Below, piece by piece: positions 11,570-53,930 of a stretch of DNA of 64,000 bases. The stretch's first letter is position 1. Every line of letters starts with the position of its first letter. A program made the translations under genes and the position numbers. Source of the DNA: an uncultured Chloroflexia bacterium (GTDB taxonomy: Bacteria; Chloroflexota; Limnocylindria; Limnocylindrales; CSP1-4); assembly GCA_963764785.1 (NCBI GenBank), contig CAVXTU010000001.1, forward strand, positions 478,015 through 542,014, in the 5' to 3' direction. The notes beneath the pieces were generated by a model. That model was not told the DNA's origin. It searched no databases and saw nothing but the letters and a program-made list of their open reading frames with translations.

Positions 11570-13760
<2,191 letters not shown>

Positions 13761-35620: not shown

Positions 35621-36049
35621 CTAGCCGCGGATGAGCTTGCTCAGGGCCTTTGCAGCCAGCCAGGAGCTGAACGCGATCGCCACGATCAATCCGCCGTCGA
35701 GCCAGGGCCGTCGTAGCGGCACGAACTCAGCGCCGGCCTCGGTGATCTCGATGTAACCGATGGGTCGAGTCAGCGCGCCGCTGCCAGCGCCCGACCCGGT
35801 GCTGGTAGTGGTGTCCTCGTTGGTGCCGGAGCCGGCGCCGGCACCGATGATCATCTGCGCCACCGGCACGATGGTCCGTTCATCTCGCTCGATGGGATCA
35901 CCGAAGACCGCCCTGGCTCCCGCCTGCATGCCGACCTGGTCGGCGACCTTCTCGAGCAACCCGGCCATGCCCGAGCTGGCGGCCTTCCTGGCCGCGTCGA
36001 ATGCCTCGCCATCGAGTTCGGTGGGCGTGAGTCCTCGTGGCTCGGTCAT
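35621..36049 (-). CDS. YtfJ/GerW-family protein
   Basis: VFGDPIERDERTIVPVAQ...GAGAGSG...RPIGYIEITEAGAEFVP pattern. ATG 36049 (MTEPRGL) is preferred. Confidence 0.65.
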   Translation of the reverse strand: MTEPRGLTPTELDGEAFDAARKAASSGMAGLLEKVADQVGMQAGARAVFGDPIERDERTIVPVAQMIIGAGAGSGTNEDTTTSTGSGAGSGALTRPIGYIEITEAGAEFVPLRRPWLDGGLIVAIAFSSWLAAKALSKLIRG

Positions 36050-36111
36050 GGGTCGCTCCTCAGGTGCGATAGGCGGGCCTGCATCGTACGGCGAGCCACT
36101 ACGATGCGCAG

Positions 36112-36459
36112 GTGATCGGCCCACGGAATCGTCCGGCCCTCATCGGCTCGCTGCTCGGCGGCGTAGGTGCCTTCGTCGTGCTGTGGTGGTTGGGCCTCTC
36201 GCCCCTTCTGGCGTGGCTGGCGGGTTGGACGCTGCCGGCGTTCGCGATGTACGGCATCGACAAGCGGCAGGCCCAGACTGGAGGCTGGCGCGTCCCCGAG
36301 GTCGTGCTCCATGGCCTGGCCCTGATCGGCGGCGTCATCGGCGCATGGGCCGGACGTGGCGTGTTCCACCACAAGACGTCCAAACCGGTGTTCACCATCG
36401 TGCTTGTCGTGGCCACGGTCTTGTGGGCCGCGATCGCCGTCTGGGCAGTACTGGGCTAG
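36112..36459 (+). CDS. DUF1294 membrane protein
   Basis: AFAMYGIDKRQAQTGGWRVPEVVLHGLALIGGVIGAWAGRGVFHHKTSKPVF is the DUF1294 signature. Confidence 0.75.
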   Translation: MIGPRNRPALIGSLLGGVGAFVVLWWLGLSPLLAWLAGWTLPAFAMYGIDKRQAQTGGWRVPEVVLHGLALIGGVIGAWAGRGVFHHKTSKPVFTIVLVVATVLWAAIAVWAVLG

Positions 36460-36539
36460 GCAGATCAGCGCGACCGGCGACGCGGGCCGGCCGCGGCTCG
36501 TCGTCTGCGGGCTGTGCCGGACCGGCGCACAATCGGACC

Positions 36540-37460
36540 ATGCACATGCGATCAGCAGCCCTGGCGAGCCTTGCCCTGGCCGGGCTGTTGGCGCTCGTGG
36601 GGACCCTTCCGGTGATGGGGCAGGATCCGCTGGTCGTCACCGATGTCGACGGACAGGACATCGTCATCGAGGATGTTTCGAATGTAGCTACGCTCGGGGG
36701 CGTATTCACTGAGACTGCCTACGCCCTCGGCGCCGAGGATCAGATCGGCGCGGTCGATGCCTCGAGCTTCTATCCACCAGAGGCGCTCGCGGACAAACCC
36801 AACCTGGGCTACTACCGCTTCCTCTCGGCGGAACCGGTGCTGGCCCAGGCACCAAGCCTGATCATCGGAAACGAGGAGACCGGGCCGTCTGACGTGGTCT
36901 CACAGCTGCGAGATGCCGGTGTGCCCATCCTGCTGCTACCCGACAACAACGATGTCCAGGCCGCCCGCGACCTGATCACGACGCTGGGTACGATCTTCGA
37001 CCGCAACGATGCGGCGACCCAGCTTCTCGCCCAGCTTGACGCTGACGTCGCGGCAGCCAGGGAGCTGGTGGCGGGGGCGACCAGCAACCCCCGGGTACTG
37101 TTCGTCCTGCAACCGCCCGAGGCGCCCATGCTGGTGGCCGGCGCTGTGACCGCGGCCGGGTCGATGATCGAGCTGGCGGGCGGTCAGAACATCTATCCCG
37201 GTTTTGCCAGCTACATCCCCATGACGCCCGAGGGCATCGTCGAGACCGCACCGGATGTCATCCTGACCACGGACGACTCGGTCGAACGGCTGGGCGGCTG
37301 GGACGCCTTCCTCGAGCTCCCCGGTATCGCCCAGACCCCGGCTGCGCGGGATGGGCGCATCGTCGCCATGGATGATCTGTACCTGATGGGCTTCGGTCCA
37401 CGCACCGGACGGGCCATCGCTGATCTGGCCAGGTTACTGCACCCGGAGTTGGGGCAGTAG
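36540..37460 (+). CDS. hmuT: hemin/siderophore-type ABC substrate-binding protein
   Basis: Signal peptide MHMRSAALASLALAGLLALVGTLPVMG, then a class III (helical backbone) binding-protein pattern. The track ORF from 35760 is an extension. Confidence 0.7.
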   Translation: MHMRSAALASLALAGLLALVGTLPVMGQDPLVVTDVDGQDIVIEDVSNVATLGGVFTETAYALGAEDQIGAVDASSFYPPEALADKPNLGYYRFLSAEPVLAQAPSLIIGNEETGPSDVVSQLRDAGVPILLLPDNNDVQAARDLITTLGTIFDRNDAATQLLAQLDADVAAARELVAGATSNPRVLFVLQPPEAPMLVAGAVTAAGSMIELAGGQNIYPGFASYIPMTPEGIVETAPDVILTTDDSVERLGGWDAFLELPGIAQTPAARDGRIVAMDDLYLMGFGPRTGRAIADLARLLHPELGQ

Positions 37461-37483: not shown

Positions 37484-38495
37484 GTGTTCTCGGTCGCCCT
37501 GGTCGCGGCCATCGTGATGGCCATGGGAATCGGAGCGGTGGCCATCTCGCCGGGGGAGGTCCTGGCCATCCTGCTCGGCACGCTGGGAGTGGATGTGGGC
37601 AGCCACAGTGAACAGCAGGAGGCCGTCCTGACCGCCATCCGCGTGCCCCGGGTCCTGGCCACTGCACTCGTCGGCGCTGCCTGGGCCTCGGCCGGCGTGG
37701 CCATGCAGGGGCTCTATCGAACGCCGCTCGCGGATCCGGCGCTGGTGGGCATCGGGGGCGGAGCGGCATTGGGCGGGGCGCTGGGCGTGGCGGCGTCGGT
37801 CTCGCTTGGGATCACGGCGGGCTACGAGGGCACCGCGGTGGTCACCGCGACGGCCTTCATCGGCGCTGCCGTTGCAGCCGTCGTCGTCTTTCGTGTGGCG
37901 TCGGCATCAGGGCGCGTGGTCGTCGCGTCGATGTTGCTGGCGGGCATCGCCCTGACCGCATTCTTCGCGGCACTCACGGCGCTCGTGGTTGCCGCCGGTC
38001 GCATGCCTGAACTCGAATTCCATCGCGTATTGGTCGCTGGGATCGTTCGCCGGCGTGGTCGGTCGGGAGGTCGTGGTCGCTGCCATCGTGATCATCCCGA
38101 CCATCGCCGTCCTGGCGCGACTGGGCCCGCGACTGGACGCACTGGCGCTGGGCGAGGCCGAAGCGCGCCACCTGGGGGTCGACGTGCGTCGCCTGACCAT
38201 CGTGGTCAGCGTCATCTTCGCGTTGCTTGCAGCGGTGGCCGTGGCCGTGGCCGGCGTCATCGCCTTCGTGGCGCTGATGGTGCCGAGCCTGGTCCGCCCG
38301 CTAGTGGGCCAGTCGCATCGAGTCGTGGCCGTCGCGTCCGGGCTCCTTGGCGCCACGCTGCTGGTCATCGCCGACGTGCTGGCACGCAGCTTGTTCTCCC
38401 CGGTCGAACTGTCGATCGGCGTGATCACCACACTGATCGGCGCACCGTTCTTCCTGTGGCTGCTACTACGTGACCGCGGGCTCCTGGCGCGATGA
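37484..38495 (+). CDS. hmuU: FecCD-family iron/heme ABC permease (apparent +1 frameshift near 38000-38025)
   Basis: ORF 37484.. (RVPRVLATALVGAAWASAGVAMQGLYRTPLADPALVG) continues in ORF 37989..38495 (SIAYWSLGSF...GEAEARHLGVDV...GVITTLIGAPFFLWLLL). Confidence 0.75.
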
Positions 38496-41448: not shown

Positions 41449-41673
41449 TTGGTTGATCGTGCGTTGGTGCCGACCATGGACTTTGACCATCGAGATCCGT
41501 CGTCCAAGAACTACACCGTCAGCAGGATGATCGGCCGAGCGGGAGACGCACGGATCATGGCGGAAGTGGCCAAGTGCGATATCGTGTGTGCGAACTGCCA
41601 TCGCGATCGAACATATCGACGTCGGGGGCTCAGGTTCCTCCGGGCGGGAGTAGCTCAGTTGGTAGAGCGCTAG
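41449..41673 (+). pseudogene. HNH-endonuclease-like fragment running into the tRNA gene
   Basis: MDFDHRDPSSKNYTVSRM...EVAKCDIVCANCHRDRT has the HNH core but no upstream CxxC half. The ORF only ends 30 nt inside tRNA-Gly. Confidence 0.4.
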
Positions 41674-41719
41674 CCTTCCAAGCTGGATGTCGCGGGTTCG
41701 AATCCCGTCTCCCGCTCCA
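41644..41719 (+). tRNA. tRNA-Gly (anticodon UCC), CCA encoded
   Basis: Acceptor GCGGGAG/CTCCCGC, D-arm GCTC-AGTTGGTA-GAGC, anticodon stem CTAGC/GCTGG with loop CTTCCAA, T-arm GCGGG-TTCGAAT-CCCGT, discriminator T plus CCA. Confidence 0.92.
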
Positions 41720-41946
41720 ATCCCTCGTGTCACGCGCGTGGCAAGACGCTGGCTGTGTCGGGGCGAGAGGGGTGGCCCCAGCTTGACCCACCTTACGGTC
41801 AGGCCCTGGAAGCAAGCTCGGGAACGTCGCCTGGTCGATGCCGGCTGCGGACGGGCTCGGTATCAGTGGGGCGAGGCCGCGTCCCGCGATGGGTCGCGGA
41901 CGGTGTTGATGGACGGCACCAAGGTCCGTGGCGCAAGATACCCGAA

Positions 41947-44900
41947 GTGAGGGCCTCCTCGGTCGACGGCAGCACGGGTGGGATCGACTCGAGGTGGCCG
42001 TCGATCCGCGTGTTCGGGGGAATCGGGCTCCAGGATGCCGATGGCCCGGTCAGTATCGGAGGGCCGCGGCAACGACGCCTCCTCGGTCTGCTGGCGCTTC
42101 GAGCGGACAAGGTCCTCGACATCGACTGGCTCGCAGAGTACCTCTGGGACGACGAGGACCGGCCTGATCTAACGGAGCCTCTGCTACGGACGTACGTGTC
42201 GCGGCTGCGCGCGGCGTTCCCATCCCGCGCGCGCGAGTGGGTCGTCACCGAGTCGGAGGGATACCGGCTGGACGCACCGCCCGACGCTATCGAGCACCTC
42301 CGGTTCGGTCGGCTTCGGGCCAGCGCGACGCAGGCGCGCGAGCGGGGCGACCCGCAGACGGCGATGCATTTGCTCGACCAAGCGCTGGATCTCTGGCGCG
42401 GCGACCCCTTCCGCGAGATCGGGGACCTGGAACTGGCCGAATCCGAGATCGAACGGCTGCAGCTCGATCGACTCGACATGATGGAAGAACGCTGGGAGGC
42501 GGCCCTGGCACTCGGTCGGCACACCCAGATCACCGGGGAGCTGGCGGCGTTCGCCTCTGAGCACGGGGAACGGGACCGAGCAGTCCGGCAGTACGCTCTC
42601 GCGCTCCACCGCAGCGGTCAGACAACGGGGGCCCTGCGCGTCGTCCGCGAGCACCGTCGCGTCATGGTCGAGGAGTTCGGCCTCGACACCTCCGCTGAGA
42701 TCACTCATCTCGAACAGGCGCTGCTCGACGACGACCCGGCACTGCTGGTCGAGAGGGATGGCCGTCCGTTGCGCGGCTACCGCCTGGTAGAGGAGATCGG
42801 TATGGGCTCCTTCGCGGTCGTCTGGCGCGGGATCCAGCCGTCCGTCGGCCGCGAGGTCGCCATCAAGCAGATCCGGGCAGAGCTCGCCACCCAGCCTGGC
42901 TTCATCCGCCGCTTCGAGGCCGAGGCGCACCTCGTGGCTCGGCTCGAGCACCCCCACATCGTGCCGCTCATCGACTACTGGCGGGATCCCGACTCGGCCT
43001 ATCTGGTCATGCGCTGGCTGGTTGGAGGCACCCTCGAACGTCGACTTGACGATGGCCCGCTGGCTGTCGACACGGCGATGGCGCTCGCTCAGCACATCGG
43101 TGGCGCGCTCTCAGCGGCCCATTCGCGCGGCGTGATCCACCGCGACGTGAAGTCGGCCAACATCCTCTTCGACGAGGACGACAACGCCTACCTGACCGAC
43201 TTCGGCATCGCGATGGAGGGCACCGACCCCGGTGGTCCGGAGGCGGCGCTGTCGCCGGGCTCACCCGCTTACGCCTCCCCGGAGCAGCTCCGCCGCGAGG
43301 CGCTCGGGCCGGCCAGCGACGTGTTCAGCCTGGGCGTCGTGCTCTTCGAGAGCCTCAGCGGATCGCTTCCCTTCCCCGCTGACACGCCGCTCGATGTGCT
43401 GGTCGACAAGCAGCTGACCGAGCCGTACCCCGCGCTTGCCGATATCCGGCCCGACATCCCTGAAGCCGTATCGGCAGCCATCGCCAAGGCCACTGCCAAG
43501 GACGTTGCCAGCCGATTCGCGAGTGTCGATGCCTTCGTCGCCGCCCTGACGTCCGGTGATGTCGCCGCGGTCGCAGTGGACACACCGGCGACCCCGCATG
43601 TGGTCGACGCCGCGCTCGAGGACCTGCCCAACCCGTACCTCGGCCTGCTCGCGTTCGACGATGCCAGCGCGGACCACTTCTACGGCAGGGATCGACTCGT
43701 GGGCGAGCTGCTGGCGAGGCTGGATGGCAACGGCACGGCCTCGCGCTGCTTGGTGATCGTCGGTCCGTCCGGTTCAGGCAAGTCGTCGGTTGCCCGTGCG
43801 GGACTCCTGCCCAAGCTCCACGAGGGAGCGGTCGCTGGCTCCGCGGACTGGTTCCCGACGACGATGACACCCGGCGACGATCCATACGAGTCGCTCGAGG
43901 CCGCGCTGCTGCGGATCGCCGTCAACCCGCCCGCCACGCTCCTGGACCAGCTCCGCGACGGTCGCCGAGGCATCCTGCGCGGCATCCGGCGCTGCCTTCC
44001 CTCCGACGAAGATCGACTGCTGCTCCTCGTCGACCAGACGGAGGAGCTGTTCCTGGGCCGCTCTGCTGGAGATGCCGACGAGTTCCTGGACGCTCTCGCG
44101 GTGGCCGTCACGGATCCGACGTCGCCCTTGCGGCTGGCGATGACGCTGCGTGCCGACTACTACCAGTACCCGTTGGAGCACCCCACGTTCGCCCCAGTCC
44201 TTGACGCAGCGACCGTCAATGTCACGCCGCTCGCGGGCGACGAGCTCGAGCAGGCCATCGTGGAGCCGGCACGCAGCCTCGGCGTGAACTTCGGGCCCGG
44301 CCTTGTGGCGCGTATCGCTGCCGAGACGATGGGCCAACCTTCGCCGCTTCCGATGCTGCAGTACGCCCTTACGGAGCTCTTCGAGCGCCGACGGGTCCGC
44401 ACGATGACGGTCGACGCCTACGATGAGATCGGTGGGCTCGCCGGTGCGCTGGCGGCGCGGGCCGAGGCCATCTACGTCGAAGCGGAAGCCGACGAGCGAG
44501 CAGCGGTACGCCGCGTCTTCGGCGCCCTCGCAGACCCGGCCGAGGCTAGCGCCGATCTGCGACGGCGTGTCCGTCTGGCCGATCTTGGCGCCGACCCCGC
44601 GACCACGTGGGTGATCGACCACTTCGGTGCCGCACGCCTGCTCGTCTTCGACCACGATGCCGCCAGCCGCGACCCCACCGTGGAGATCACGCACGAGGCC
44701 CTGTTGCGCGAGTGGCCGCGCCTTGCTGCCTGGCTGGAGGCGGATCGCGAGGTCCTCAGGGCGACCGAGGAGCTGGCCGACGGCGCCAGTCGCTGGGATG
44801 CGGACGGACAGCGGGACGAGGACCTGCTTCGCGGGCTCCGACTTGAACAGGCCATCGAGCTGGCCGGGACCGATCCTCAACGTCTGCGGGAGCTCGACAG

Positions 44901-47209
44901 CGAGTACATCGCAGCGTCGCGTGTGGCCGCGGAGGTAGCGGATGCCGCCGAGCGCTCCCATCAGCGTCGGGTGCGAGTCCTGGGTGCGAGTGTCGCATTG
45001 GCGCTCGTCACCGCCGTCGTGCTGGGCGGACTCGCGCTGCTGCAGCAGACGAGGGCAGACGATGAGATGCGCGCGGCCGGGGCGGCGCAGGACCGCGCCG
45101 ACCTGGCGCTCCTGCAGAGGCGCGCGGCCGAGAGTGAGCCACGAGTCGGACTGCTGCTTGCCCTGGAGGCCCAGCGTCGCGACCCAGGCCCGGAGTCAGA
45201 CGACGTCCTGCTCGCCGCGCTCCGGCGTGCCGGAGGAGGGCGGCTCGTCGCCGCGTACCCGGCCCTGGCCTCCGGGCGCTGCGCCGCGGTAGCCGGCAGC
45301 GTCGTGTCACGTGACGGCTTGACGGAGTCCTCCACGGTCGACGGCATGCTCTCGACCCGGGACCTGGTCACAGGTCAGACGCGCCAGCGCGGGCCGATCC
45401 CGACAGACGGTTGCGTACGCTGGTTTGGCGACGAGACCACCGGTCGGCGGTACGCGTACGACCAGAACCGCAACCCCGGTCTCGACGGCGCCAGCCTCTG
45501 GCTCGGACGACTCGACGGGCCGTGGGAGGTGATGGTCAACCGGCCCTGGTCGAGCATCGTTTCGGGACCGCATGCGTTCGGTCCGACACGGCTGCTTCTC
45601 GAGGCTCCCGGCACGGTCTCCCTCGTCGACAGCGTGGCGGGTCGGCTGGTGGCCCCGCCGATCTTCGGACTGGCCGAAGAGCCTCGCGCCCAGCTCAGCC
45701 CAGACGAGGGACGCTTCGCGGTCGTGGCCAGCGACCCCCACACGGACGGGGAGATCGTCATCGTGCACGACGCACGCGACGGGAGCGAGCAGGTGCGGAC
45801 AGCCATCCCGTCGAGTGTCACCGCGCTGGCGTTCGACGACGACAGGGCGCAGCTGCTCCTCGCCGCGAGCGACGGTCATCTGCGCACGGTCGATCTCAGC
45901 GATGGTGCCGTCATCGCCGACGTCGCCGTCGACGGGATGCAGATCGAAGGGCCGGGCAGCATCGGCATCACTGCAGATGGTCTCGTCACCCTCATCTCGA
46001 GTGGTCCGGACGGTGGCGTCCAGGTCATCGACCGCGTCAGCGGCCAACCACGGGGCCCCATCCTCGAGCTCGCGGAGTCGATCGGTGGGCGGACACGGCC
46101 CGACGGCACCATCGTCACGTGGCGCTCTGATCACGAGCTCGCTGTCATCGATCCCCGATCCGATCCGCTCGTGGAGCAAACGGTGAGCCTTGCCATCGGC
46201 GACGCTCCACTCGGCGACAACGAGCAGATCGTCACCGTCAACGGGCAGCAGGCGACGATGCTGCTCCACCGATGAGGGCGGGCGACTCGCGGTCGTCGAC
46301 CTCTCCGAGGGTCAGGGCCGGTTCGTCTCCCTGCACACACCTGATGGCCGGCACTTCCCGGAGACCCGCGCGTACGCAGCAGGAGAAGGACTCGTGGCCG
46401 TCACCGACGACCAGCGAGTGGGCCTGTGGATCGACGATGTCGAGACCGACGAAGTCGTCATCGAGAGCGACCGGCGCGGTGGCCTCGTCGGGACGCGAAG
46501 CAACGACCCGTTCCTCATCGTGACTTTGGCCGACGGGCCGATGACGATCGAGGACGAGCACCTGCTGGACCTCAGCAACGACCGCATCGAGGAGCGGTTC
46601 GCGGTCACGGGAACGCCCACGGTGTGGATCTGGCCGATGTCCGATGGCGGGCTCTGGCGGGTCGGTCGAGATGGCTTGGCCGAGCGCTGGGATGCATCCG
46701 GCGAATTGCTCAAGGAGCAATCGTTTACCGTCCCCGACGCAGAGCGGATCAGCATCTTCGCCGCCGATGAGCACGGCCGCGTGGCCTACGTGCGAGCAGA
46801 CGCCCCCGGAGGCCTCAATCGTATCGAGGTTCGCGATCTCGAGCGCGGCGAGACGATCGAGCGGACCGCTCCCGGCCTCGTCAACTGGATGGGCTTCGCT
46901 CGAGATGGGGAGCTGCTCGCGCTGCAGATGGTCGATGGCAGTGTCCGGCTCATGGACGTCGAGAGCGGGGTGACCGGTGGCGTCCTCTGGGACGGCGATG
47001 GCACGCAGCTGCGGACGCCCTGGTACGACCAGGCAACCGATTCGATCTGGGTAGCCGCGCGCGAGCAGCTCGTTCGTCTTCCCATCGACCCGTCCGCGTG
47101 GCGTGAGCACGCCTGCGCCAGCGTGACCCGGGAGCTCACCGCGAGCGAGTGGGCCGAGCTGGTGCCCGGCGCCGAGGCGCAGGTCCCGGCCTGCCCAGCA
47201 GACGCATGA
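41947..47209 (+). CDS. giant multidomain protein: SARP (wHTH+BTAD) / Ser-Thr protein kinase / STAND P-loop NTPase / TM helix / beta-propeller repeats (apparent +1 frameshift at 46262-46272)
   Basis: IRVFGG...PRQRRLLGLLAL, LDLWRGDPF (BTAD). Kinase VAIKQIR, HRDVKSANILF, DFGIA, SPAYASPEQ (about 42778-43545). Walker A GPSGSGKSS (43762-43785). LLLLVDQTEELF. Helix VLGASVALALVTAVVLGGLALL (about 44978-45046). Blade-like repeats continue in ORF 46190..47209. The GTG 41947 start is tentative. Confidence 0.8.
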
Positions 47210-47258
47210 GGGGGACGACCGTGGATGGCGGTTACTTGGAGGGGATGGAGGTCAGGAG

Positions 47259-48362
47259 ATGACTCGACGAAAGACACACGAGCCGACGCGGAGAGCAACG
47301 ATGCGCTCGTTCGCCCTGGTGATCGCGACCGTCCTGGCGCTCGCGGTGGCAGGTACCGCGCCGATGGCGGCCGCCGAGGCGACTGACCCGATCGACCTCG
47401 AGGCCGAGCTCGGTGACATGGTCGGTCTCCAGTCCGGCGGGGCCGTGGCCCTGGCCGTGCATGACGGCGAGACGCGCAGTGCCGCTGTCGGCTACGCCGA
47501 CGCTGCGGGTGACCCGATGACCGTCGAGTCCGGGTTCCGGGTCGGCTGGTTCGACATGCAGTTCGTGGCTGCCTTGGTGCTTCAGCTCGTTGATGAAGGG
47601 CGGGTGGATCTCGACACACCACTCGCGACCTATCTGCCTGACGTTCCGCTCGGAGGTGACGCGACCATCCGGCAGCTGCTGACGCAGCAGGCGCGCCTGA
47701 GCAACGTCTTGCCGGAACTCATCAGCCGCTATTCGCAGGATCCGGCCCACCTGTGGACGATCGACGAGATCGTCGAGATCGCCGCCGAGGTAGCTCGTGA
47801 GGAAGGCACGCGCGTCGATCAGCTCGGGCCTACTGAGTACTTCCTGCTGACCGAACTGGTCGACGTCGTCGATGGGGGTATGTCCGACGCGTTCGACCGC
47901 CGCATCGTCGATCAGCTCAATCTGCAAGGGACGTCGTATCCGGGCAGTCGGATGCCCGAAGGGCTGGCCGCGGGTTGGCTCCTGGGTCTCGGCCTCGAGG
48001 GGCAGCCGGACATCGGAGGGCTGGACCGCATCAGCGGCTTCCGCACCACCGCCCCGGACCTGGCGCGGTTCCTCCAGGCATTGCTGGCCGGAGAGGTCGT
48101 CTCGAATGAGCTGCTCTCGGAGGTCTTCTCCGACGAGGTCGGTCCGATCACTCTCGGCGCCTTCTTCCTCCCTGACGCCATGGGCTACCCGGGCAGGCGA
48201 GTCTTCGGCACACGGGGCGGTGACTACTCCGGCTACAGCTTCGACATCGTCGTCGACCCCGAGACGGGCGATATCGCCGTCGTGCTCGCCAACAACGCCG
48301 ATATCGATACCCACCCCGTCGCCGCCTCCATCGTGGAGTCCTGGAGCACCGAAGGCGGCTGA
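47259..48362 (+). CDS. secreted beta-lactamase/serine-hydrolase-fold protein lacking catalytic motifs
   Basis: Signal peptide, then FRVGWFDMQFVAALVLQLVDEGRVDLDTPL, where SxxK is replaced by WFDM. Y-x-N position reads LGPTEYFLL and the H/KTG position reads GTRGGDYSG. Confidence 0.75.
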   Translation: MTRRKTHEPTRRATMRSFALVIATVLALAVAGTAPMAAAEATDPIDLEAELGDMVGLQSGGAVALAVHDGETRSAAVGYADAAGDPMTVESGFRVGWFDMQFVAALVLQLVDEGRVDLDTPLATYLPDVPLGGDATIRQLLTQQARLSNVLPELISRYSQDPAHLWTIDEIVEIAAEVAREEGTRVDQLGPTEYFLLTELVDVVDGGMSDAFDRRIVDQLNLQGTSYPGSRMPEGLAAGWLLGLGLEGQPDIGGLDRISGFRTTAPDLARFLQALLAGEVVSNELLSEVFSDEVGPITLGAFFLPDAMGYPGRRVFGTRGGDYSGYSFDIVVDPETGDIAVVLANNADIDTHPVAASIVESWSTEGG

Positions 48363-48467
48363 CGCTCGCTCGGATAGGTCCCTGCAAGGCGCTGCAAGCC
48401 GTTCGATAGGGCCAAGGAGGACGCTGCGGAGCGTCCAATCCCCCAACCCGAACGGAGGCACCAAGGA

Positions 48468-49182
48468 ATGCAGCACCAGGAACGACCGGAGCACGGCAAG
48501 GCATTCGCCAGGGCCATCACGACCACCACCATCGCACTCATGAGCATCGGCCTGCTCGCAGGCTCGGCCGTAGGGGTCGCGGCGCAAGACGAGGAGACGC
48601 GGCCGCCGGAGCTCCTGCCACAGTTGCGGGAAATCTTCATGTCGACGAGCCCGGAGCTGCCGGCGAGCGCTGCCGTCGACTACTCAGGGCGGGCGTTCGA
48701 TCTCGCCCCAGAGACGCCGATCTACTACACCTGGGAGAACGGAGAGTGGCCTGAAATCGGAGATGGTGCCAGGCACGTTCGACGAGGAGACCGGCGCTCT
48801 CACCGGTATGTCCGCCGGCTCGATCCCGGTGACAGCCAGTGACCCACGATTCAACTCCACCGCCTGGGTCACGGTCAACCTCCAGCAGCAGGAGGGTAAC
48901 GATGGCGTCGCGATCGTCGAGTCACGTTCGTTCCGTCTCATCGATGAGCTCGGATGCACCTGGACCGGAGAGAGCACGGCGGTAAGGTTCGGGATCCCGC
49001 CCGAGCCACCGGTGTACGACAGCGAGGCCGCCATGCTCACCGGGGATGGACCCTGCGAGGGACTCACCATGTGGACCACCGGCGACTACCTCGAGGATCC
49101 GTATGGCGAGGCGGTCATCTTCAGCGCTCCGGTCCCACCGGTGCCTGACGCACCCGACGCTGCGCTCGCGCTCGCTGACTAG
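48468..49182 (+). CDS. hypothetical secreted protein (apparent +1 frameshift near 48740-48765)
   Basis: Signal/TM segment ITTTTIALMSIGLLAGSAVGVAA. ORF 48468..48842 is continued by ORF 48763..49182. No recognised domain. Confidence 0.5.
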
Positions 49183-49334
49183 TGCGATAGCACCACCGAC
49201 GGCGGCGGCTGCCGAAACCCCGCTGGGGTCCGGGGGTCGCCGTCGTGTCTTTGGACCCGCGCTCGAGGTCGGGAGCTCCCGCGAGCACGAGCTCGTCCTC
49301 CTCGGCGCCGCGCGCTTCTGCTTGGGAGCACGGG

Positions 49335-49486
49335 AGACGATGGCTGGACGAGGTTCGCTCACGCCTCGAGCACGCTGCCATAACGGTACGCGGCCGCGGC
49401 CTTCCAAGCTGGATGTCGCGGGTTCGAATCCCGTCTGCCGCTCCACTCCCCTCTGTCACGCTCCTGGCGACACGATCGCTGTGTCA
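49335..49486 (+). repeat. att-like repeat R2: element arm + tRNA-Gly 3' half + downstream arm
   Basis: 49399-49445 equals tRNA positions 41673-41719 with 1 mismatch. The next 41 nt match 41720-41760 gaplessly at 29/41. The 65 nt upstream match the arm upstream of R3. Confidence 0.75.
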
Positions 49487-49927
49487 GTCGGCGAGCGCGT
49501 CCCGCTCCATCAGGTCCCTGAGGTTGTCGAGGTCGTTCTGGAACTGGCGCTTGGCGGCGGAGGTGAAGAGCGGCCCGACGAGCTTGAAGAACCCGCCGGG
49601 CTCCCCGTCGACGACCTGGACGACCCGCGTGCCGCCCGCCCCAGACTCGAACGTGAAGGTCATCGTCGCCGCGAACGGCCCCGTCATATCGAACGTGAGG
49701 TTGCGGTTCGGCTCGAACTCGGTGTAGGTGATGTCCATCTCGATGCGCCGGCCGAGGAACTTGCCGACGCTGTGCCAGGTCGTGCCGACACCGATGGGCC
49801 CGTCCGAGGTCTTGGTGGTCTCGTTCACCGATGAGATCCACTTCGCATCCTGCGAGGCGTCGCTGATGACGGCGAAGACCTCCTCCACCGGCCGCTCGAT
49901 CGTGGTGCTGACCTCTGCTCGGGCCAT
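49484..49927 (-). CDS. SRPBCC-family (polyketide cyclase/START-like) protein
   Basis: 147 aa: EVSTTIERPVEEVFAVISDASQDAKW...GVGTTWHSVGKFLGRRIEMDITYTEFEPNR, the typical SRPBCC ligand-binding fold pattern. Confidence 0.75.
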   Translation of the reverse strand: MARAEVSTTIERPVEEVFAVISDASQDAKWISSVNETTKTSDGPIGVGTTWHSVGKFLGRRIEMDITYTEFEPNRNLTFDMTGPFAATMTFTFESGAGGTRVVQVVDGEPGGFFKLVGPLFTSAAKRQFQNDLDNLRDLMERDALAD

Positions 49928-50069: not shown

Positions 50070-50190
50070 AGACGATGACTGGACGAGATACGTTCTCGCC
50101 TCGAGCACCCTGCCACAGCGCTACGCGGACGCGGCCTTCCAAGCTGATGTCGAGGGTCCGGATCCCGTCTCCCGCTCAGATCAATCCTCG
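50070..50190 (+). repeat. att-like repeat R3: element arm + decayed tRNA-Gly 3' half
   Basis: 50134-50178 gccttccaagctgatgtcgagggtccggatcccgtctcccgctca is the tRNA 3' half with two 1-nt deletions and 3 substitutions. 50070-50133 parallels 49335-49398. Confidence 0.65.
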
Positions 50191-51290: not shown

Positions 51291-52643
51291 CTACTGACGC
51301 GCCGTTCGGTCCACCTGCTCAAAGCGGATCACGGTCGGCACCGGGTCGCCATCATCGCGCTCGGCACGGCGCCTCGCCCTGGCCTGCCTGGCGCGAACCG
51401 CCGCCTTCCTGGCCCTGGCCTCACGTGCCTGGCGGGACTGCCGAGCCTTGGCCTGGCGGGGCTGCCCGGCCTTCGCGGCATTCGTGCCAGCGATCTTGCC
51501 GGACGTGGTGCTCACCCTTGCGCTCAGCATCGCCAGATCCTCTTCAGGATCCATGGTGACCGCTCCCGTCGGCTGAACAGCGGCGCGGCCCGTTCCCGCA
51601 AGGATCGTTCGTTCACTGTCACTCATGAGACCGGATGGCTGAGCCGCGCTCCGAGGGGCAGCCTGGTCCACGTCATTCGCGTAGCCCAGACCGACGGGCA
51701 ACAGGGGGACCACAGCAGCGACCAGGCCGATGGCCATCCAGCGAGGTGCTCGCCTGGCGCCCTGGCTGGCGATGATCAGTCGAAACCGCCGCTCGAGTGA
51801 CACGCCGCCGTCGATCCCGGTGGCCACCGCGGGTGGCTGGACGGCCGGGCGCGCGAGGTGTTCGACCACGGCGAGCAAGGCTCGTGCGTAGGACCGCGGA
51901 CGGGGCCCCAGGTGCTCGATGACCAAGGCATCACAGCTGGCCTCCTCGTCCAGGCGCAGGTTCTGTCGGGCCCACCAGGCCACCGGGTTCCACCAGAACG
52001 CGACGCAGGCGAGCCACTCCAGCCAGCGGACGAGGTGATCGCGACGCTTGACATGAGCAAGCTCGTGGCCAAGGACCCAGGCCAGCTGGTCACTCTGGAT
52101 GTCCTGCGCGAGCCCGCTTGGCAGGACGACCCGGACGCGGCCGCCGGTCCACCACGTCATCGGCGATAGGCGGGCCTCGGTGATGTAGACCAAGGGCACC
52201 GACTGGATCCCGAGGCGTCCTCCTGCGTCCTGGGCCATGAACTGGATCCATCCGGGCGCCTGCCGCGTGGTCCGCCACAGCAATCGATCGAATCGGTAGA
52301 TACGCAGCACCGACACCCCCAGGACGATGCCGCTGCCGATCCCCCAGATGATGAGCAGCCCGACCAGGGCGTCGTCGATGAGCGCACCCATCCCGAACGG
52401 GGCTTCGAGCAGCGTCCCGCCGCCGGCCGCGGCCGGCCCCCCCAGCAGCGCGCTCGTGGCGGGGATATGCGCCATGGGCAGTGACAGCACCGGTGGCGTG
52501 ATCAGCTTGACCAGTACCAGCACCCACAACAGGTGGGCCAGCACCGGATACTGCCCTCGGCGATGGACCGCGTAGGCGAACCCCGCGATGACCGCAGATG
52601 CCAGCAGATTGCTGAGCGCGACCTGGACCAGGAACGCCGTCAT
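51291..52643 (-). CDS. M56-family (BlaR1/MecR1-like) membrane metalloprotease lacking a penicillin-binding sensor domain
   Basis: VLGHELAHVKRRDHLVRWLEWLACVAFWWNPVAWW (HExxH plus WxNP). The C-terminus is a low-complexity Arg/Ala/Gln-rich tail. Confidence 0.8.
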   Translation of the reverse strand: MTAFLVQVALSNLLASAVIAGFAYAVHRRGQYPVLAHLLWVLVLVKLITPPVLSLPMAHIPATSALLGGPAAAGGGTLLEAPFGMGALIDDALVGLLIIWGIGSGIVLGVSVLRIYRFDRLLWRTTRQAPGWIQFMAQDAGGRLGIQSVPLVYITEARLSPMTWWTGGRVRVVLPSGLAQDIQSDQLAWVLGHELAHVKRRDHLVRWLEWLACVAFWWNPVAWWARQNLRLDEEASCDALVIEHLGPRPRSYARALLAVVEHLARPAVQPPAVATGIDGGVSLERRFRLIIASQGARRAPRWMAIGLVAAVVPLLPVGLGYANDVDQAAPRSAAQPSGLMSDSERTILAGTGRAAVQPTGAVTMDPEEDLAMLSARVSTTSGKIAGTNAAKAGQPRQAKARQSRQAREARARKAAVRARQARARRRAERDDGDPVPTVIRFEQVDRTARQ

Positions 52644-53035
52644 GCCTCGTCCAGTGGGGGCTCCGGTTCCTCATCGAGGATCTGGCGCAGCCGCTGTAGT
52701 TCAGCAGGTGAGAGACGGTTCTGCTCGATCAGGTGCGTGACGAGCGGAGCCAGCGACCCGTGGGTCAGGCGCTCGGCGAGCGACTCGAGCTGGCTGCTGG
52801 CGTAGTCCTCACGTCCCACGGCAGCCGAGAACAGGTGCACGGCGAGCCGGGTATCGCGGCGAACGTAGCCCTTCTCCTCAAGGCGTTGCAGCAATCGCTG
52901 GACGGTGCCGTGCTGCGCCTTCGGCGACTCCGGATAGAGCCGTTCGCGGATCTCGCGCGCCGTCAGTCGCTCCTCGTCCCAGAGCAGATCCATGATCGCG
53001 AGCTCGGCGTTGGCGAGAGGCGGTCGCGTCGGCAT
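52640..53035 (-). CDS. BlaI/MecI/CopY-family transcriptional repressor
   Basis: LANAELAIMDLLWDEERLTAREIRERL...HGTVQRLLQRLEEKGYVRR winged helix. Its stop overlaps the M56 gene start. Confidence 0.85.
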   Translation of the reverse strand: MPTRPPLANAELAIMDLLWDEERLTAREIRERLYPESPKAQHGTVQRLLQRLEEKGYVRRDTRLAVHLFSAAVGREDYASSQLESLAERLTHGSLAPLVTHLIEQNRLSPAELQRLRQILDEEPEPPLDEA

Positions 53036-53054
53036 CGGTCCTCGGCGGGCTAGT

Positions 53055-53091
53055 ACGACTGAACGTCGTTATTGTACGACAACTTGTCGTA
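53055..53091. promoter_or_regulatory. palindromic operator candidates in the blaI / RTX-like divergent region
   Basis: Perfect 8-1-8 inverted repeat tacgacaa-c-ttgtcgta (53075-53091), plus acgac-tgaac-gtcgt (53055-69) sharing the TACGAC half-site. Confidence 0.55.
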
Positions 53092-53177
53092 TGGTACGGT
53101 TCCGCCGGCAACGAGGAGCGCTACGGACGTTCATGCCGTGCCCCAGACCGGCGCTCCGGAAGCAGAAGGAAGGTGAC

Positions 53178-53930
53178 ATGCCCCAGTTTCGACACCTCGG
53201 TGCAGCGGCGGCGATGGTAGCAGTCTCGATGGTGGCTTTCTCGTCGGTGGCCGCGGCACATCCCGGCCACCGGTTCGACCACGTCTACATCGGCACCACC
53301 GGGCCGGACACGTTCACGGCCGCGCCCGGCGACCGCGATCTGATCATCGGCCGGGCTGGCGATGACGAGCTCGACGCCGGCGACAGGCATGATCGTGTCT
53401 ACGGCGGTCGCGGAGACGACCTCATCTATGGCGGGGGTGGGAGCGACCTGATCCTGGCCGGACCGGGCAACGACGGGGTGCGCGCCGGAGACGGCCGGGA
53501 CCGCGTCATGGCCGGTCGCGGTGACGACAGGATCGCCGGTGGCGCGGGCCCCAACCTACTGGTCGGTGGACCTGGTGACGATGTCATCTACGGTGGCGAC
53601 GACCATGACCGAGTCCTTGGTGGGCCCGGTCACGACACCATCGATGCTGGCGACGGACGCGACCTCGTGCGCGGTGGACGCGGCGGCGACAGCATCGGCG
53701 GCGGCGACGGGAATGACAAGGTCGCGGGTGGTCCCGGCAGCGACACGATGACGGGTGGTCCCGGCCACGACCTCCTGCTCGGGGGTCCTGGCGATGACAT
53801 CATCTACGCCGCCGATGGTGAGGCCGACCGAGTCGATTGTGGTCCCGGCGATGACGACTACACAGCGGACGACATCGACAGCGTGGCCGCCAACTGCGAG
53901 AACGACATCTCCACCGACATCGCTCCGTAG
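53178..53930 (+). CDS. secreted calcium-binding beta-roll protein with RTX-like GGxGxD nonapeptide repeats
   Basis: Signal peptide MPQFRHLGAAAAMVAVSMVAFSSVAAA. At least 15 consecutive 9-residue units (GGRGDDLIY GGGGSDLIL AGPGNDGVR ... GGPGDDIIY). RBS AAGGAAGG precedes ATG 53178. Confidence 0.8.
   Translation: MPQFRHLGAAAAMVAVSMVAFSSVAAAHPGHRFDHVYIGTTGPDTFTAAPGDRDLIIGRAGDDELDAGDRHDRVYGGRGDDLIYGGGGSDLILAGPGNDGVRAGDGRDRVMAGRGDDRIAGGAGPNLLVGGPGDDVIYGGDDHDRVLGGPGHDTIDAGDGRDLVRGGRGGDSIGGGDGNDKVAGGPGSDTMTGGPGHDLLLGGPGDDIIYAADGEADRVDCGPGDDDYTADDIDSVAANCENDISTDIAP

Follow-up and report, generated by a model that had tools for sequence, protein, structure and literature searches.

Organisation of the locus

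Within the window, the whole stretch of 64,000 nucleotides that was analysed, a genuine gene lies at 41947-47209 on the forward strand, with its frame broken once near 46265 in this assembly. Together with two further genes it forms a module within a 7.7-kb element which is bounded by att-type repeats of a tRNA-Gly and carries no integrase. The following features were located:

41644..41719 (+), intact tRNA-Gly(TCC) (ARAGORN; Rfam tRNA, 73.9 bits)
41720..41759 (+), P'-like arm of about 40 nt right after the tRNA, from alignments
41947..46266 (+), putative receptor gene, part 1, amino acids 1-1440, up to the frameshift; in-frame stop at 46273-46275
46262..46275 (+), frameshift site and ensuing TGA stop, 2 nt fewer than at the related locus L001
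46265..47209 (+), putative receptor gene, part 2, merged amino acids 1441-1754 in another frame, alignable to the C-terminal ends of homologues of full length
47259..48362 (+), secreted protein of beta-lactamase/PBP fold, catalytic residues absent (PF00144, 5e-26; signal peptide in the sequence)
48363..48467 (+), conserved intergenic element with direct repeat, GATAGG motifs and hairpin
48468..49182 (+), third gene, secreted protein, two ORFs of 124 and 139 amino acids, frameshifted near 48755-48770
49335..49485 (+), attR-type junction 1: P-like arm 49335-49398, tRNA 3' half 49399-49445, P'-like arm 49446-49485
49484..49927 (-), SRPBCC / polyketide-cyclase-like protein of 147 amino acids (Polyketide_cyc2, 4.5e-21, Pfam)
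50070..50182 (+), attR-type junction 2, degenerate: P-like arm 50070-50133, tRNA 3' half 50134-50182

The tRNA-Gly(TCC) is found 227 nt upstream of the receptor start, and its 3' 47 nt (41673-41719, repeat family D1/D3) constitute an attL-type core. The P'-like arm behind it resembles the flank after the second copy of the tRNA half and, more weakly, the flank after the third; the 87-nt repeat D1 pairs 41673-41759 with 49399-49485 at 87% identity. At junction 1 the tRNA 3' half is matched in 46 of 47 nt, with zero matches expected by chance, and at junction 2 the P-like arm is 87% identical to the first one and the tRNA 3' half 86%. These repeats bound two elements of 7.7 kb and 0.74 kb, the second of which holds the SRPBCC gene as its sole gene; an integrase was found in neither. 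A preliminary description of this DNA had placed the gene on a tRNA-Gly island, the bounds of which are now defined more sharply than had been proposed; its flanks show no synteny with those in the closest relative.

The reading frame consists of two ORFs, 41755..46275 with a likely GTG start at 41947 and, in another frame, 46190..47209, which bears out a break already flagged at 46262-46272. The protein on record (P0001) is identical to the 1,442-amino-acid first product, and the deposited annotation ends there. Compared with L001 the assembly is 2 nt short at CTG^CTCC, and a 79% identical homologue, P0002, can be followed in the first frame to 'ATML' (about 46263) and is picked up in the second at 'VVDL'. 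Repair of the frame yields a protein of 1,754 amino acids, which can be aligned from one end to the other with homologues 1,700-1,780 amino acids in length.

In the PF00144 protein directly downstream, SxxK is replaced by WFDM and YxN is missing. The loss of catalytic residues had been recognised before. The protein is not incidental island cargo: a dead, signal-peptide-bearing partner directly follows the receptor gene at five of five loci of the subclade, defined by receptors at least about 55% identical to that of the window. Orthologous and equally dead partners sit at L001, L002/L003, L031, and L032, and in three distinct loci (L002/L003, L031, and L032) the receptor stop and partner start codons overlap. 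Judged from this gene arrangement, the partner is conserved and translationally coupled within the subclade. It is absent from the more distant family members examined and can therefore not be the general ligand system of the family. The third gene encodes a signal peptide, as had been expected of the adjacent secreted protein, and is frameshifted; its orthologue at L001 is intact with 264 amino acids. Its C-terminal domain is related to the N-terminal domain of active 525-amino-acid beta-lactamase-fold proteins (36% identity, E 5e-15), which L002 and L031 encode ahead of the receptor, on its upstream side, the accessory-domain content being common to both sub-branches.

The intergenic element between these two genes is 89% identical to its counterpart at L001, compared to 77% for the coding block. 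It contains the direct repeat CTGCAAG-N3-CTGCAAG (48382-48398), flanked by GATAGG motifs, and the hairpin GGACGCT-gcgg-AGCGTCC. The repeat occurs only at the orthologous site and has a period of 10 nt, with a chance expectation in the window that is not negligible; no canonical SARP box with an 11-nt period was found, which weighs against the receptor reading set out below.

Domain architecture and family

From the N-terminus the merged protein combines an OmpR-type winged helix-turn-helix with a BTAD (SARP head), a Hanks-type Ser/Thr kinase, an nSTAND1 NTPase, a transmembrane helix, and a tandem WD40-like double beta-propeller. Profile searches, with Pfam E-values taken on the 1,442-amino-acid first part, and a structure model agree with the domain order initially read from the letters. 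All modules lie on the forward strand:

42064..42726 (+), SARP head: OmpR-type winged helix (amino acids 40-108) and BTAD (119-260), Pfam
42778..43554 (+), Hanks-type Ser/Thr protein kinase domain, amino acids 278-536, Pfam and NCBIfam
43633..44817 (+), nSTAND1 STAND NTPase, amino acids 563-957, Walker A GPSGSGKSS, Walker B LLLLVDQTEELF, Pfam
44986..45042 (+), single TM helix, amino acids 1014-1032, with RRVRV before and QQTRADDE after it
45043..47209 (+), predicted extracytoplasmic part crossing the frameshift: helical stalk, two WD40-like propellers, C-terminal helical motif with conserved cysteines

The head is matched by Trans_reg_C (amino acids 40-108, E 7e-07) and BTAD (119-260, E 3e-29) and has a conserved recognition-helix motif, RTYxSRLR. 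Among solved structures it is matched best by AfsR (8hvr, E 5e-25) and then by EmbR (2fez, E 4e-18), both of which are kinase-regulated SARPs (PMC10936776). In the kinase (Pkinase, amino acids 278-487, E 6e-45; PknB-like match in NCBIfam, 278-536) the residues K307 of VAIK, D400 of HRD, N405, and D418 of DFG are invariant among 40 homologues, as are the Walker A motif and the Walker B residue D696 with E699 and E700 in the NTPase, which matches positions 1-378 of the 379 in PF20703 (E 4e-104).

The helix has a mean Kyte-Doolittle value of 2.44 over 19 amino acids, the only such peak in the merged protein, and was modelled by AlphaFold2 as a portion of one long helix. A hydrophobic helix occupies the same position in 40 of 40 aligned homologues and in 27 of 29 ORFs of distant relatives. 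For the C-terminal part of about 650 amino acids AlphaFold2 predicted some 55 beta-strands (pLDDT 85.4, pTM 0.75), and Foldseek related it to tandem seven-bladed WD40 propellers, namely the double propellers of Pwp2, Utp21, Apaf-1, and Aip1 (E 1e-21 to 1e-17); the two propellers correspond to merged amino acids 1099-1713, approximately. C1112, C1156, C1724, and C1750 are near-invariant, and near-invariant cysteines occur only in this C-terminal part. The cytoplasmic modules have dN/dS values of 0.10-0.18 versus 0.27-0.28 in the predicted ectodomain, as would be expected of a diversifying sensor.

This architecture recurs in over 120 clusters with identities of at least 49% and in at least 568 metagenome loci, mostly from Acidimicrobiia (Ilumatobacteraceae). 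This family is large, constant in architecture, and uncharacterised to date. With hundreds of relatives in the Acidimicrobiia the five-module design is recurrent and not unique, and the singularity implied by the preliminary description had to be given up. Its view of the nSTAND1-helix-propeller core as a widespread chassis was sustained, as this core is found also with trypsin-like, HTH_31, or kinase-only N-termini. Such nSTAND1-TM-WD40 proteins are known from Actinomycetota, Chloroflexota, and cyanobacteria (Kaur, Iyer, Burroughs and Aravind 2021, PMC8195603). They share with the present protein the NTPase family (PF20703), the helix position, and the propeller-type C-terminus, but have a trypsin-like peptidase, HTH_31, or a kinase alone as output in place of SARP plus kinase.

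A candidate receptor and its alternatives

The reading which we favour with moderate confidence is that of an island-borne module centred on a single-pass transmembrane receptor, acting by the mechanism proposed below, with a frameshift that is most probably an assembly indel or else very recent. The propellers are predicted to lie outside the cell on the basis of hydropathy, domain swaps, and the conserved cysteines. In sister subfamilies the helix is followed either by a canonical WD40 propeller or by an extracellular solute-binding domain (SBP_bac_1), and for this reason the propeller is read as extracellular, which in turn favours a receptor-type "large SARP" and disfavours an Avs-like cytoplasmic phage sensor.

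A fully cytoplasmic, Apaf-1-like regulator, in which the helix would be buried or serve dimerisation and the propellers would bind an intracellular ligand, finds some backing in the Foldseek neighbourhood of Apaf-1 and other cytosolic WD40 proteins. It appears highly improbable in view of a helix segment with 19-21 uncharged residues, an Arg-rich, positive N-flank and an acidic flank on the other side, in which hydrophobicity is conserved across homologues and sequence is not. The solute-binding domains behind the same helix, the confinement of the conserved cysteines to the distal part, and the signal peptides of the genomic partners also speak against it. The preliminary description had offered an Avs-like conflict module as one possibility. 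In a fuller form this would be a conflict or immune-type STAND, Avs-like or apoptosis-like, with propellers that sense a molecule of an invader or competitor and an NTPase switch that launches defence via kinase and SARP. Avs and other bacterial NLR-like STANDs indeed have an N-terminal output, a central STAND NTPase, and a C-terminal repeat sensor; it was in work on counter-invader systems that nSTAND1 was defined (PMC8195603), the chassis carries trypsin-like protease N-termini in Streptomyces, and an ectodomain relative, P0129, bears a TIR_2 fragment. The fast-evolving sensor domain, the island-borne locus, the toxin-antitoxin genes, integrase fragments, or IS elements in the vicinity of some homologues, and a match to the PADLOC candidate model C3a189 that extends across the kinase into the beginning of the NTPase point in the same direction. 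However, the family has no toxic effector, be it a nuclease, protease, TIR, or Sir2-type domain, its outputs being a transcription-activator head and a kinase, and the sensor, predicted to be extracytoplasmic behind the conserved helix, is interchangeable with solute-binding domains, while those Avs proteins that have been characterised recognise phage proteins within the cytoplasm (PMC12803255). The remaining PADLOC matches are to the generic kinase domain, no neighbour in the window fits any defence model, which leaves no defence-island context, and no relative was found in 2.9 million viral contigs. This reading is on these grounds considered quite unlikely.

Decay on a degraded island is the other alternative, in which the shifts near 46265 and 48765 would be real, the distal propeller unmade, and the whole module non-functional, carried along by an integrative element that is itself dead. 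Frameshifts interrupt two of the three genes in the 7.7-kb element, which lacks an integrase and is followed by a tiny second remnant, the protein as deposited ends after 1,442 amino acids, and the 2-nt deficit is at odds with a classic single-base homopolymer error, which counts against an artefact. On the other hand, a housekeeping FecCD permease gene 8 kb upstream is frameshifted as well, and P0002, on the contig of the closest relative, appears frameshifted at a different place, its own C-terminus, which indicates indel-prone assemblies. No additional stop or indel occurs in the 945 nt 3' of the shift, the repaired protein is modelled confidently by AlphaFold2 across the junction, and dN/dS is 0.27 behind the shift and 0.28, taken as equal, before it; by this measure the distal part of the gene is under purifying selection. 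Given the frameshifts in two more genes within 11 kb and the apparent purifying selection on the distal part, the break probably stems from an assembly error, if not from a very recent lesion, and a decaying pseudogene is judged unlikely.

For the receptor a mechanism can be proposed from the precedents of STAND proteins, AfsR, AfsK, and ToxR. The N-terminal 1,010 or so amino acids with SARP head, kinase, and NTPase would be cytoplasmic, one helix would cross the membrane, and the C-terminal part of about 720 amino acids, stalk and two propellers, would face outward. A ligand or partner, in the subclade possibly the two co-encoded secreted proteins, the small one and the dead one with the beta-lactamase fold, would dock on the outer propellers and lift autoinhibition across the membrane, whereupon the nSTAND1 module might exchange or bind ATP and oligomerise. 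The kinase domains may then meet and trans-phosphorylate their own protein and/or other targets, and the SARP heads, lined up next to each other on direct repeats that overlap the -35 region of a promoter, would activate transcription from the membrane.

Like AfsR, a 'large SARP' of Streptomyces built from SARP, NOD/NB-ARC, and TPR, the protein has a SARP head with a STAND-type NTPase after it, but the NTPase is nSTAND1 instead of NB-ARC, the sensor a double WD40-like propeller instead of TPR, and a TM helix is inserted between the two, AfsR being soluble. AfsK is a Hanks kinase with a PQQ-type beta-propeller, the propeller belonging there to the kinase partner. The pairing of a Ser/Thr kinase acting on a SARP regulator is shared with AfsK/AfsR (PMC10936776), with the difference that kinase and regulator here form one chain, in effect AfsK (kinase with propeller) and AfsR (SARP, NOD, sensor) joined in a putative membrane-tethered protein. 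Phosphorylation of AfsR by AfsK is reported to increase oligomerisation and DNA binding but probably not to be the trigger of activation (PMC10936776), which makes the step proposed for the fused kinase a tentative one. A similar kinase-to-SARP signalling logic is seen in mycobacterial PknH/EmbR. In PknD the sensor of the kinase is an extracellular beta-propeller, and in PknK a MalT-like/STAND-like ATPase region is joined to the kinase; all these are either individual proteins or fusions of two modules, and none is known to unite all five. ToxR and CadC control transcription from the membrane with an N-terminal cytoplasmic OmpR-type winged helix, one TM helix, and an extracytoplasmic sensor. 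The same layout is predicted here, with some 900 further residues (BTAD, kinase, and STAND NTPase) on the cytoplasmic side between DNA-binding domain and membrane and with propellers to which their sensor fold is unrelated. About 1,000 cytoplasmic residues are unusual in a membrane-tethered activator, an observation that counts against the receptor reading.

The receptor gene, its reading frame and its N-terminal modules

The most fitting description of the receptor encoded at 41947-47209 is that of a kinase-fused 'large SARP' tethered to the membrane, with a predicted extracellular double propeller; its gene and those of two secreted partners lie on a tRNA-Gly element that has no integrase.

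Features of the receptor locus and its surroundings
37484-38495: FecCD-type ABC permease gene of an iron-siderophore uptake operon, with a shift near 37990-38010
41644-41719: tRNA-Gly(TCC)
41720-49445: element E1, containing exactly the three-gene module
41755 to the TGA at 46273-46275, forward strand: first part of the receptor reading frame, plausible start GTG 41947
46190-47209, forward strand: second part of the receptor reading frame, in another frame
47259-48362: gene 2, PF00144 beta-lactamase/PBP-fold protein with signal peptide (fold match 5e-26)
48363-48467 (13077-13180 in L001, the locus of the closest relative): intergenic element, the spacer of genes 2 and 3, 89% identical to L001 versus 77% for the whole block
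48468-49182: gene 3, secreted protein, frameshifted; the L001 orthologue is intact and has 264 amino acids
49446-50182: element E2, a 0.74-kb mini-element between two att-type junctions, with an SRPBCC/polyketide-cyclase-like gene only (49484-49927, reverse strand)

Of the full-length homologues P0002 is the closest (79% identity, 1,742 amino acids); it matches the first receptor frame up to '...VNG..ATML' and the second from '...VVDL...', and nucleotide comparison with L001 showed the window to be 2 nt short at CTG^CTCC. Joining the frames at 46265/46266 yielded a protein of 1,754 amino acids which aligns end to end with 39 homologues. Further stops are absent from the 945 nt past the shift, and dN/dS against L001 is 0.28 before and 0.27 after it. 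Three frameshifted genes lie within 11 kb (the FecCD permease at about 38000, the receptor at about 46265 and gene 3 at about 48765). The permease can be read well in frame +1 to about residue 172, its true C-terminal half being found in the reading frame 37989..38495, which suggests an indel-prone assembly. P0002, from a related contig, appears frameshifted at its own C-terminus. A window-wide GC3 frame plot flagged the FecCD gene, whose shift was then borne out when its frames were read, and was too noisy at 67% GC to provide a frameshift rate. For the receptor, long-standing decay appears less likely than an indel in the assembly or a lesion of very recent date, and the deposited product of 1,442 amino acids is probably a truncated call, a lesson for genome annotation. 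In the neighbouring Peripla_BP_2 protein (35760-37460, listed with 566 amino acids) the N-terminal 260 residues or so read as wrong-frame sequence, and the protein itself probably begins near residue 264, with the signal peptide MHMRSAALASLALAG....

The preliminary description had read the modules of the protein by eye and proposed profile searches; Pfam confirmed head, kinase and NTPase, and the finding is real and had been well read. Trans_reg_C was found at residues 40-108 with 29.6 bits versus a cut-off of 26.2 (Pfam, first part) and BTAD at residues 119-260 with 102.8 bits, so that both domains of a SARP are present. The top matches of the head (residues 32-266) in the PDB were AfsR (8hvr, E 5e-25) and EmbR (2fez, E 4e-18), and the recognition-helix motif RTYxSRLR is kept. 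The Pkinase domain (residues 278-487, 154 bits, E 6e-45) is a Hanks-type catalytic core with the motifs VAIKQIR, HRDVKSANILF, DFGIA and SPAYASPEQ, and its catalytic residues Lys307 (VAIK), Asp400 (HRD), Asn405 and Asp418 (DFG) are invariant in 40 aligned sequences. NCBIfam gave additional AfsR-like SARP and PknB-like kinase matches. The NTPase belongs to nSTAND1 (PF20703; residues 563-957, 349.6 bits, E 4e-104, profile positions 1-378 of 379), with Walker A GPSGSGKSS and Walker B hhhhDQxEE invariant across the same 40 sequences; among solved structures this region has no sequence homologue. STAND ATPases as a group are described as exchanging nucleotide and oligomerising once a ligand triggers them (PMC10936776), and we infer from this family precedent that the receptor would be switched in the same manner.

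Predicted membrane topology, ectodomain and relatives

The sole strong hydrophobic peak of the protein lies at residues 1014-1032 (Kyte-Doolittle mean 2.44), with RRVRV before and QQTRADDE after it. A hydrophobic helix occurs at the equivalent position in all 40 aligned members, conserved in character and not in sequence, and in 27 of 29 reading frames of distant relatives including Streptomyces nSTAND1 proteins, the other two having no peak. For residues 1001-1754 an AlphaFold2 model based on a 24-sequence alignment (pLDDT 85.4, pTM 0.75) yielded a long helix comprising the transmembrane segment and a stalk, two short helices, about 55 strands and a C-terminal helical motif, and the repaired frameshift region folds undisturbed. 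The top 50 Foldseek matches of this model in the PDB were tandem seven-bladed WD40 propellers (probability 1.0, E 1e-21 to 1e-17), among them Pwp2, Utp21, EML-type proteins, Apaf-1 and Aip1, which points to two propellers in the predicted ectodomain. The earlier propeller call, for which a structure prediction had been suggested as a check, holds with this modelling of the C-terminal part; sequence-level WD40 matches in the window's copy are marginal only.

When ten C-termini of a sister subgroup were tested, Pfam detected SBP_bac_1 after the helix in three (loci L005, L054 and L114) and canonical WD40 propellers in others. A single hydrophobic helix followed by a periplasmic-binding-protein fold is a classic hallmark of sensors on the outside of the cell. 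Since SBP_bac_1 follows the same helix in the sister subfamily, the best reading of the receptor is an N-in/C-out topology with a putatively extracytoplasmic ectodomain, in line with the positive-inside flank, the signal peptides on the co-encoded partners and four ectodomain cysteines which are invariant or nearly so (C1112, C1156, C1724 and C1750).

The five-module fusion had initially been presented as if it were unique, which it is not. A protein search recovered the window's truncated product (P0001) and over 120 clusters (identity 49-79%), the vast majority of them with 1,700-1,780 amino acids and the same Pfam content as the window's receptor. They come from Ilumatobacter, Ilumatobacteraceae, Acidimicrobiia and Actinomycetota MAGs and are called, where named, 'protein kinase', 'BTAD domain-containing' or 'nSTAND1 domain-containing NTPase'. 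With the BTAD-kinase junction specific to the family as probe, at least 568 relatives were confirmed on metagenome contigs, and 80 loci were analysed; a large subgroup of these keeps the SARP-kinase-nSTAND1-TM order and has a C-terminus unmatched by the ectodomain profile of the window's family. The ectodomain itself has a narrower distribution than the whole protein, with 452 representatives at E <= 1e-3 among 1.84 billion proteins, and all full-length matches have about 1,630-1,770 amino acids. Shorter matches of 800-1,000 amino acids were considered as a different architecture, which was rejected as most are N-truncated fragments still showing nSTAND1. In one metagenomic ectodomain relative of 1,018 amino acids (P0129) the truncated N-terminus bears a TIR_2 fragment and nSTAND1 was not detected; this protein may be a TIR-TM-propeller variant.

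Another scan, which combined full-length alignment with a generic pattern in a genome collection, gave at least 24 mostly distant loci, informative on variants of the chassis. The nSTAND1-TM-propeller chassis occurs with a trypsin-like peptidase in Streptomyces (L018, L019), with HTH_31 (L013, L023) and with a kinase alone in Chloroflexota (L006, L008, L009). As the chassis, which is already known (PMC8195603), also bears these other outputs, the window's architecture is one output variant of it. A literature search in a limited library, which is no proof of novelty, found no description of proteins combining SARP, kinase, nSTAND1, transmembrane helix and propeller. The design is uncommon, yet recurrent and assembled from known parts, and the family is large and unstudied.

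Partner genes and the tRNA-Gly element

An orthologue of gene 2 lies directly 3' of the receptor gene in L001, L002/L003, L031 and L032, overlapping the receptor stop codon in all of these except L001. The catalytic SxxK and YxN motifs are absent from all five versions (WFDM, WFGM, FFGT, NVLA and PLGV at the motif positions), which bears out the dead beta-lactamase-fold neighbour that had been proposed; nearby PF00144 paralogues retain SxSK, SxTK and YSN. The C-terminal domain of gene 3 is homologous (36% identity, E 5e-15) to the N-terminal domain of active PF00144 proteins of 525 amino acids which in L002 and L031 are encoded directly 5' of the receptor gene. As this domain recurs there, accessory modules travel with the receptor in both sub-branches. 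Distant members (50-57% identity) have varied neighbours and no immediately adjacent partner, with the exception of P0010, which has an active PF00144 paralogue two genes downstream. A family-wide beta-lactamase-fold partner was therefore rejected, the partner being confined to the window's subclade. In L029 the beta-lactamase-fold HMM matched (E 1e-19) a reading frame of 104 amino acids (13341-13703) just downstream of the homologue P0032, which may be what remains of a former partner gene.

The intergenic element contains CTGCAAG-N3-CTGCAAG (48382-48398, 10-nt period), two GATAGG motifs and the perfect hairpin GGACGCTgcggAGCGTCC. The CTGCAAG pair is the only conserved direct repeat found as a candidate SARP site, and its period is unlike the canonical SARP spacing, given in PMC10936776 as direct repeats with an 11-nt period overlapping the -35 element. 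The element could be an operator/promoter or a 5'-UTR structure; scans for sigma-70 promoters and terminators were uninformative.

The 3' 47 nt of the tRNA (41673-41719) recur at 49399-49445 (46/47 nt) and, degraded, at 50134-50182 (86%), where chance would give zero matches to the tRNA half. Both downstream copies share a 64-nt left arm (87% identical), and the 40 nt or so after each copy are similar, a layout as expected if two related elements had inserted in tandem at this tRNA. E2 resembles a cassette with one gene or the remnant of an older island. No integrase was found in E1, E2 or the reading frames scanned between 33.9 and 59 kb, and the GC content is not deviant (0.68-0.70 inside versus 0.66-0.69 outside). 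Nucleotide homology with L001 is limited to 41905-49175, a three-gene block of 7.3 kb with 77% identity; around the orthologous block neither tRNA-Gly nor att sequences nor flanking repeats were found, and its flanks differ from those of the window. Because homology stops at the block, with other flanks and no att, the module appears to be mobile or at least relocated. Metagenome and viral collections gave zero matches to the attR junction (P arm plus tRNA half), and no tRNA association was found at other family loci. With the tRNA-half repeats bounding E1 and the L001 block flanked differently, the tRNA-Gly island of the preliminary description stands: the island signature is real, and the element is non-autonomous or decayed. 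A short reading frame (41449-41673), which ends inside the tRNA-Gly region with an HNH-endonuclease-like tail (FDHRDP...CDIVCANCHRDR) and has no Pfam match, may be a truncated gene.

Regulatory receptor or conflict module

An Avs-like module had also been suggested in the preliminary description, and here the results point elsewhere. Avs and other antiviral STAND proteins have a cytoplasmic sensor of phage proteins; in the window's receptor the sensor comes after the transmembrane helix and the neighbourhood is not a defence island. Its N-terminus consists of SARP head and kinase and not of a killing effector (nuclease, protease, TIR or Sir2). PADLOC matched the receptor essentially with generic kinase models, one candidate model extending into the NTPase, and gave no defence-model match for its neighbours in the window; no relatives of the receptor were found in 2.9 million viral contigs. 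With its transcription factor head, kinase and predicted outside sensor, the protein resembles a receptor-regulator more than an abortive-infection device of the Avs type. A broader role in conflict may nevertheless apply, given that protease-bearing relatives of the chassis exist and that some homologues have toxin-antitoxin and IS genes around them.

Taking the receptor-regulator together with its partners and element, a wider reading can be put forward tentatively, and as a whole it is rather doubtful. The protein would represent an undescribed class of transmembrane STAND receptors, in which an extracellular propeller, or an SBP domain in sister clades, drives an intracellular NOD-like ATP switch controlling both outputs of the chain, a Ser/Thr kinase and a SARP activator. 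A secreted beta-lactamase-fold pseudoenzyme would serve as co-receptor in the window's subclade, for instance for cell-wall fragments or beta-lactam-like molecules, and the three-gene module would be cargo of integrase-less, tRNA-Gly-targeting cis-mobilisable elements.

To our knowledge, the STAND/NLR-type switches studied so far sense their ligands inside the cell; if the sensor does lie outside the membrane, the family would be a compact model of NOD-like ATPase signalling across a bilayer. Since the output is a kinase plus a DNA-binding activator in one chain, the receptor would be a 'Rosetta-stone' fusion, supporting a direct functional link between AfsK-type kinases and AfsR-type regulators. 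In soils and waters Acidimicrobiia are abundant, yet they are hardly tractable, so that a recurrent regulator of 1,750 amino acids, known in hundreds of variants and with an ectodomain that evolves fast, is a plausible handle on their environmental perception. The conserved secreted pseudo-beta-lactamase partner provides a concrete and testable ligand hypothesis.

Genes for ParE/antitoxin and PemK, IS110 and an integrase fragment were seen near homologues in L029 and L033. Just outside the island of the window lie a BlaR1-type M56 peptidase gene (51291-52643, reverse strand) and a gene for an RTX calcium-binding repeat protein (52992-53930, forward strand), and in L031 the receptor homologue is preceded, at a distance of about 4.8 kb, by an M56/RTX fusion; this may be coincidental or may connect with the beta-lactamase-fold partners.
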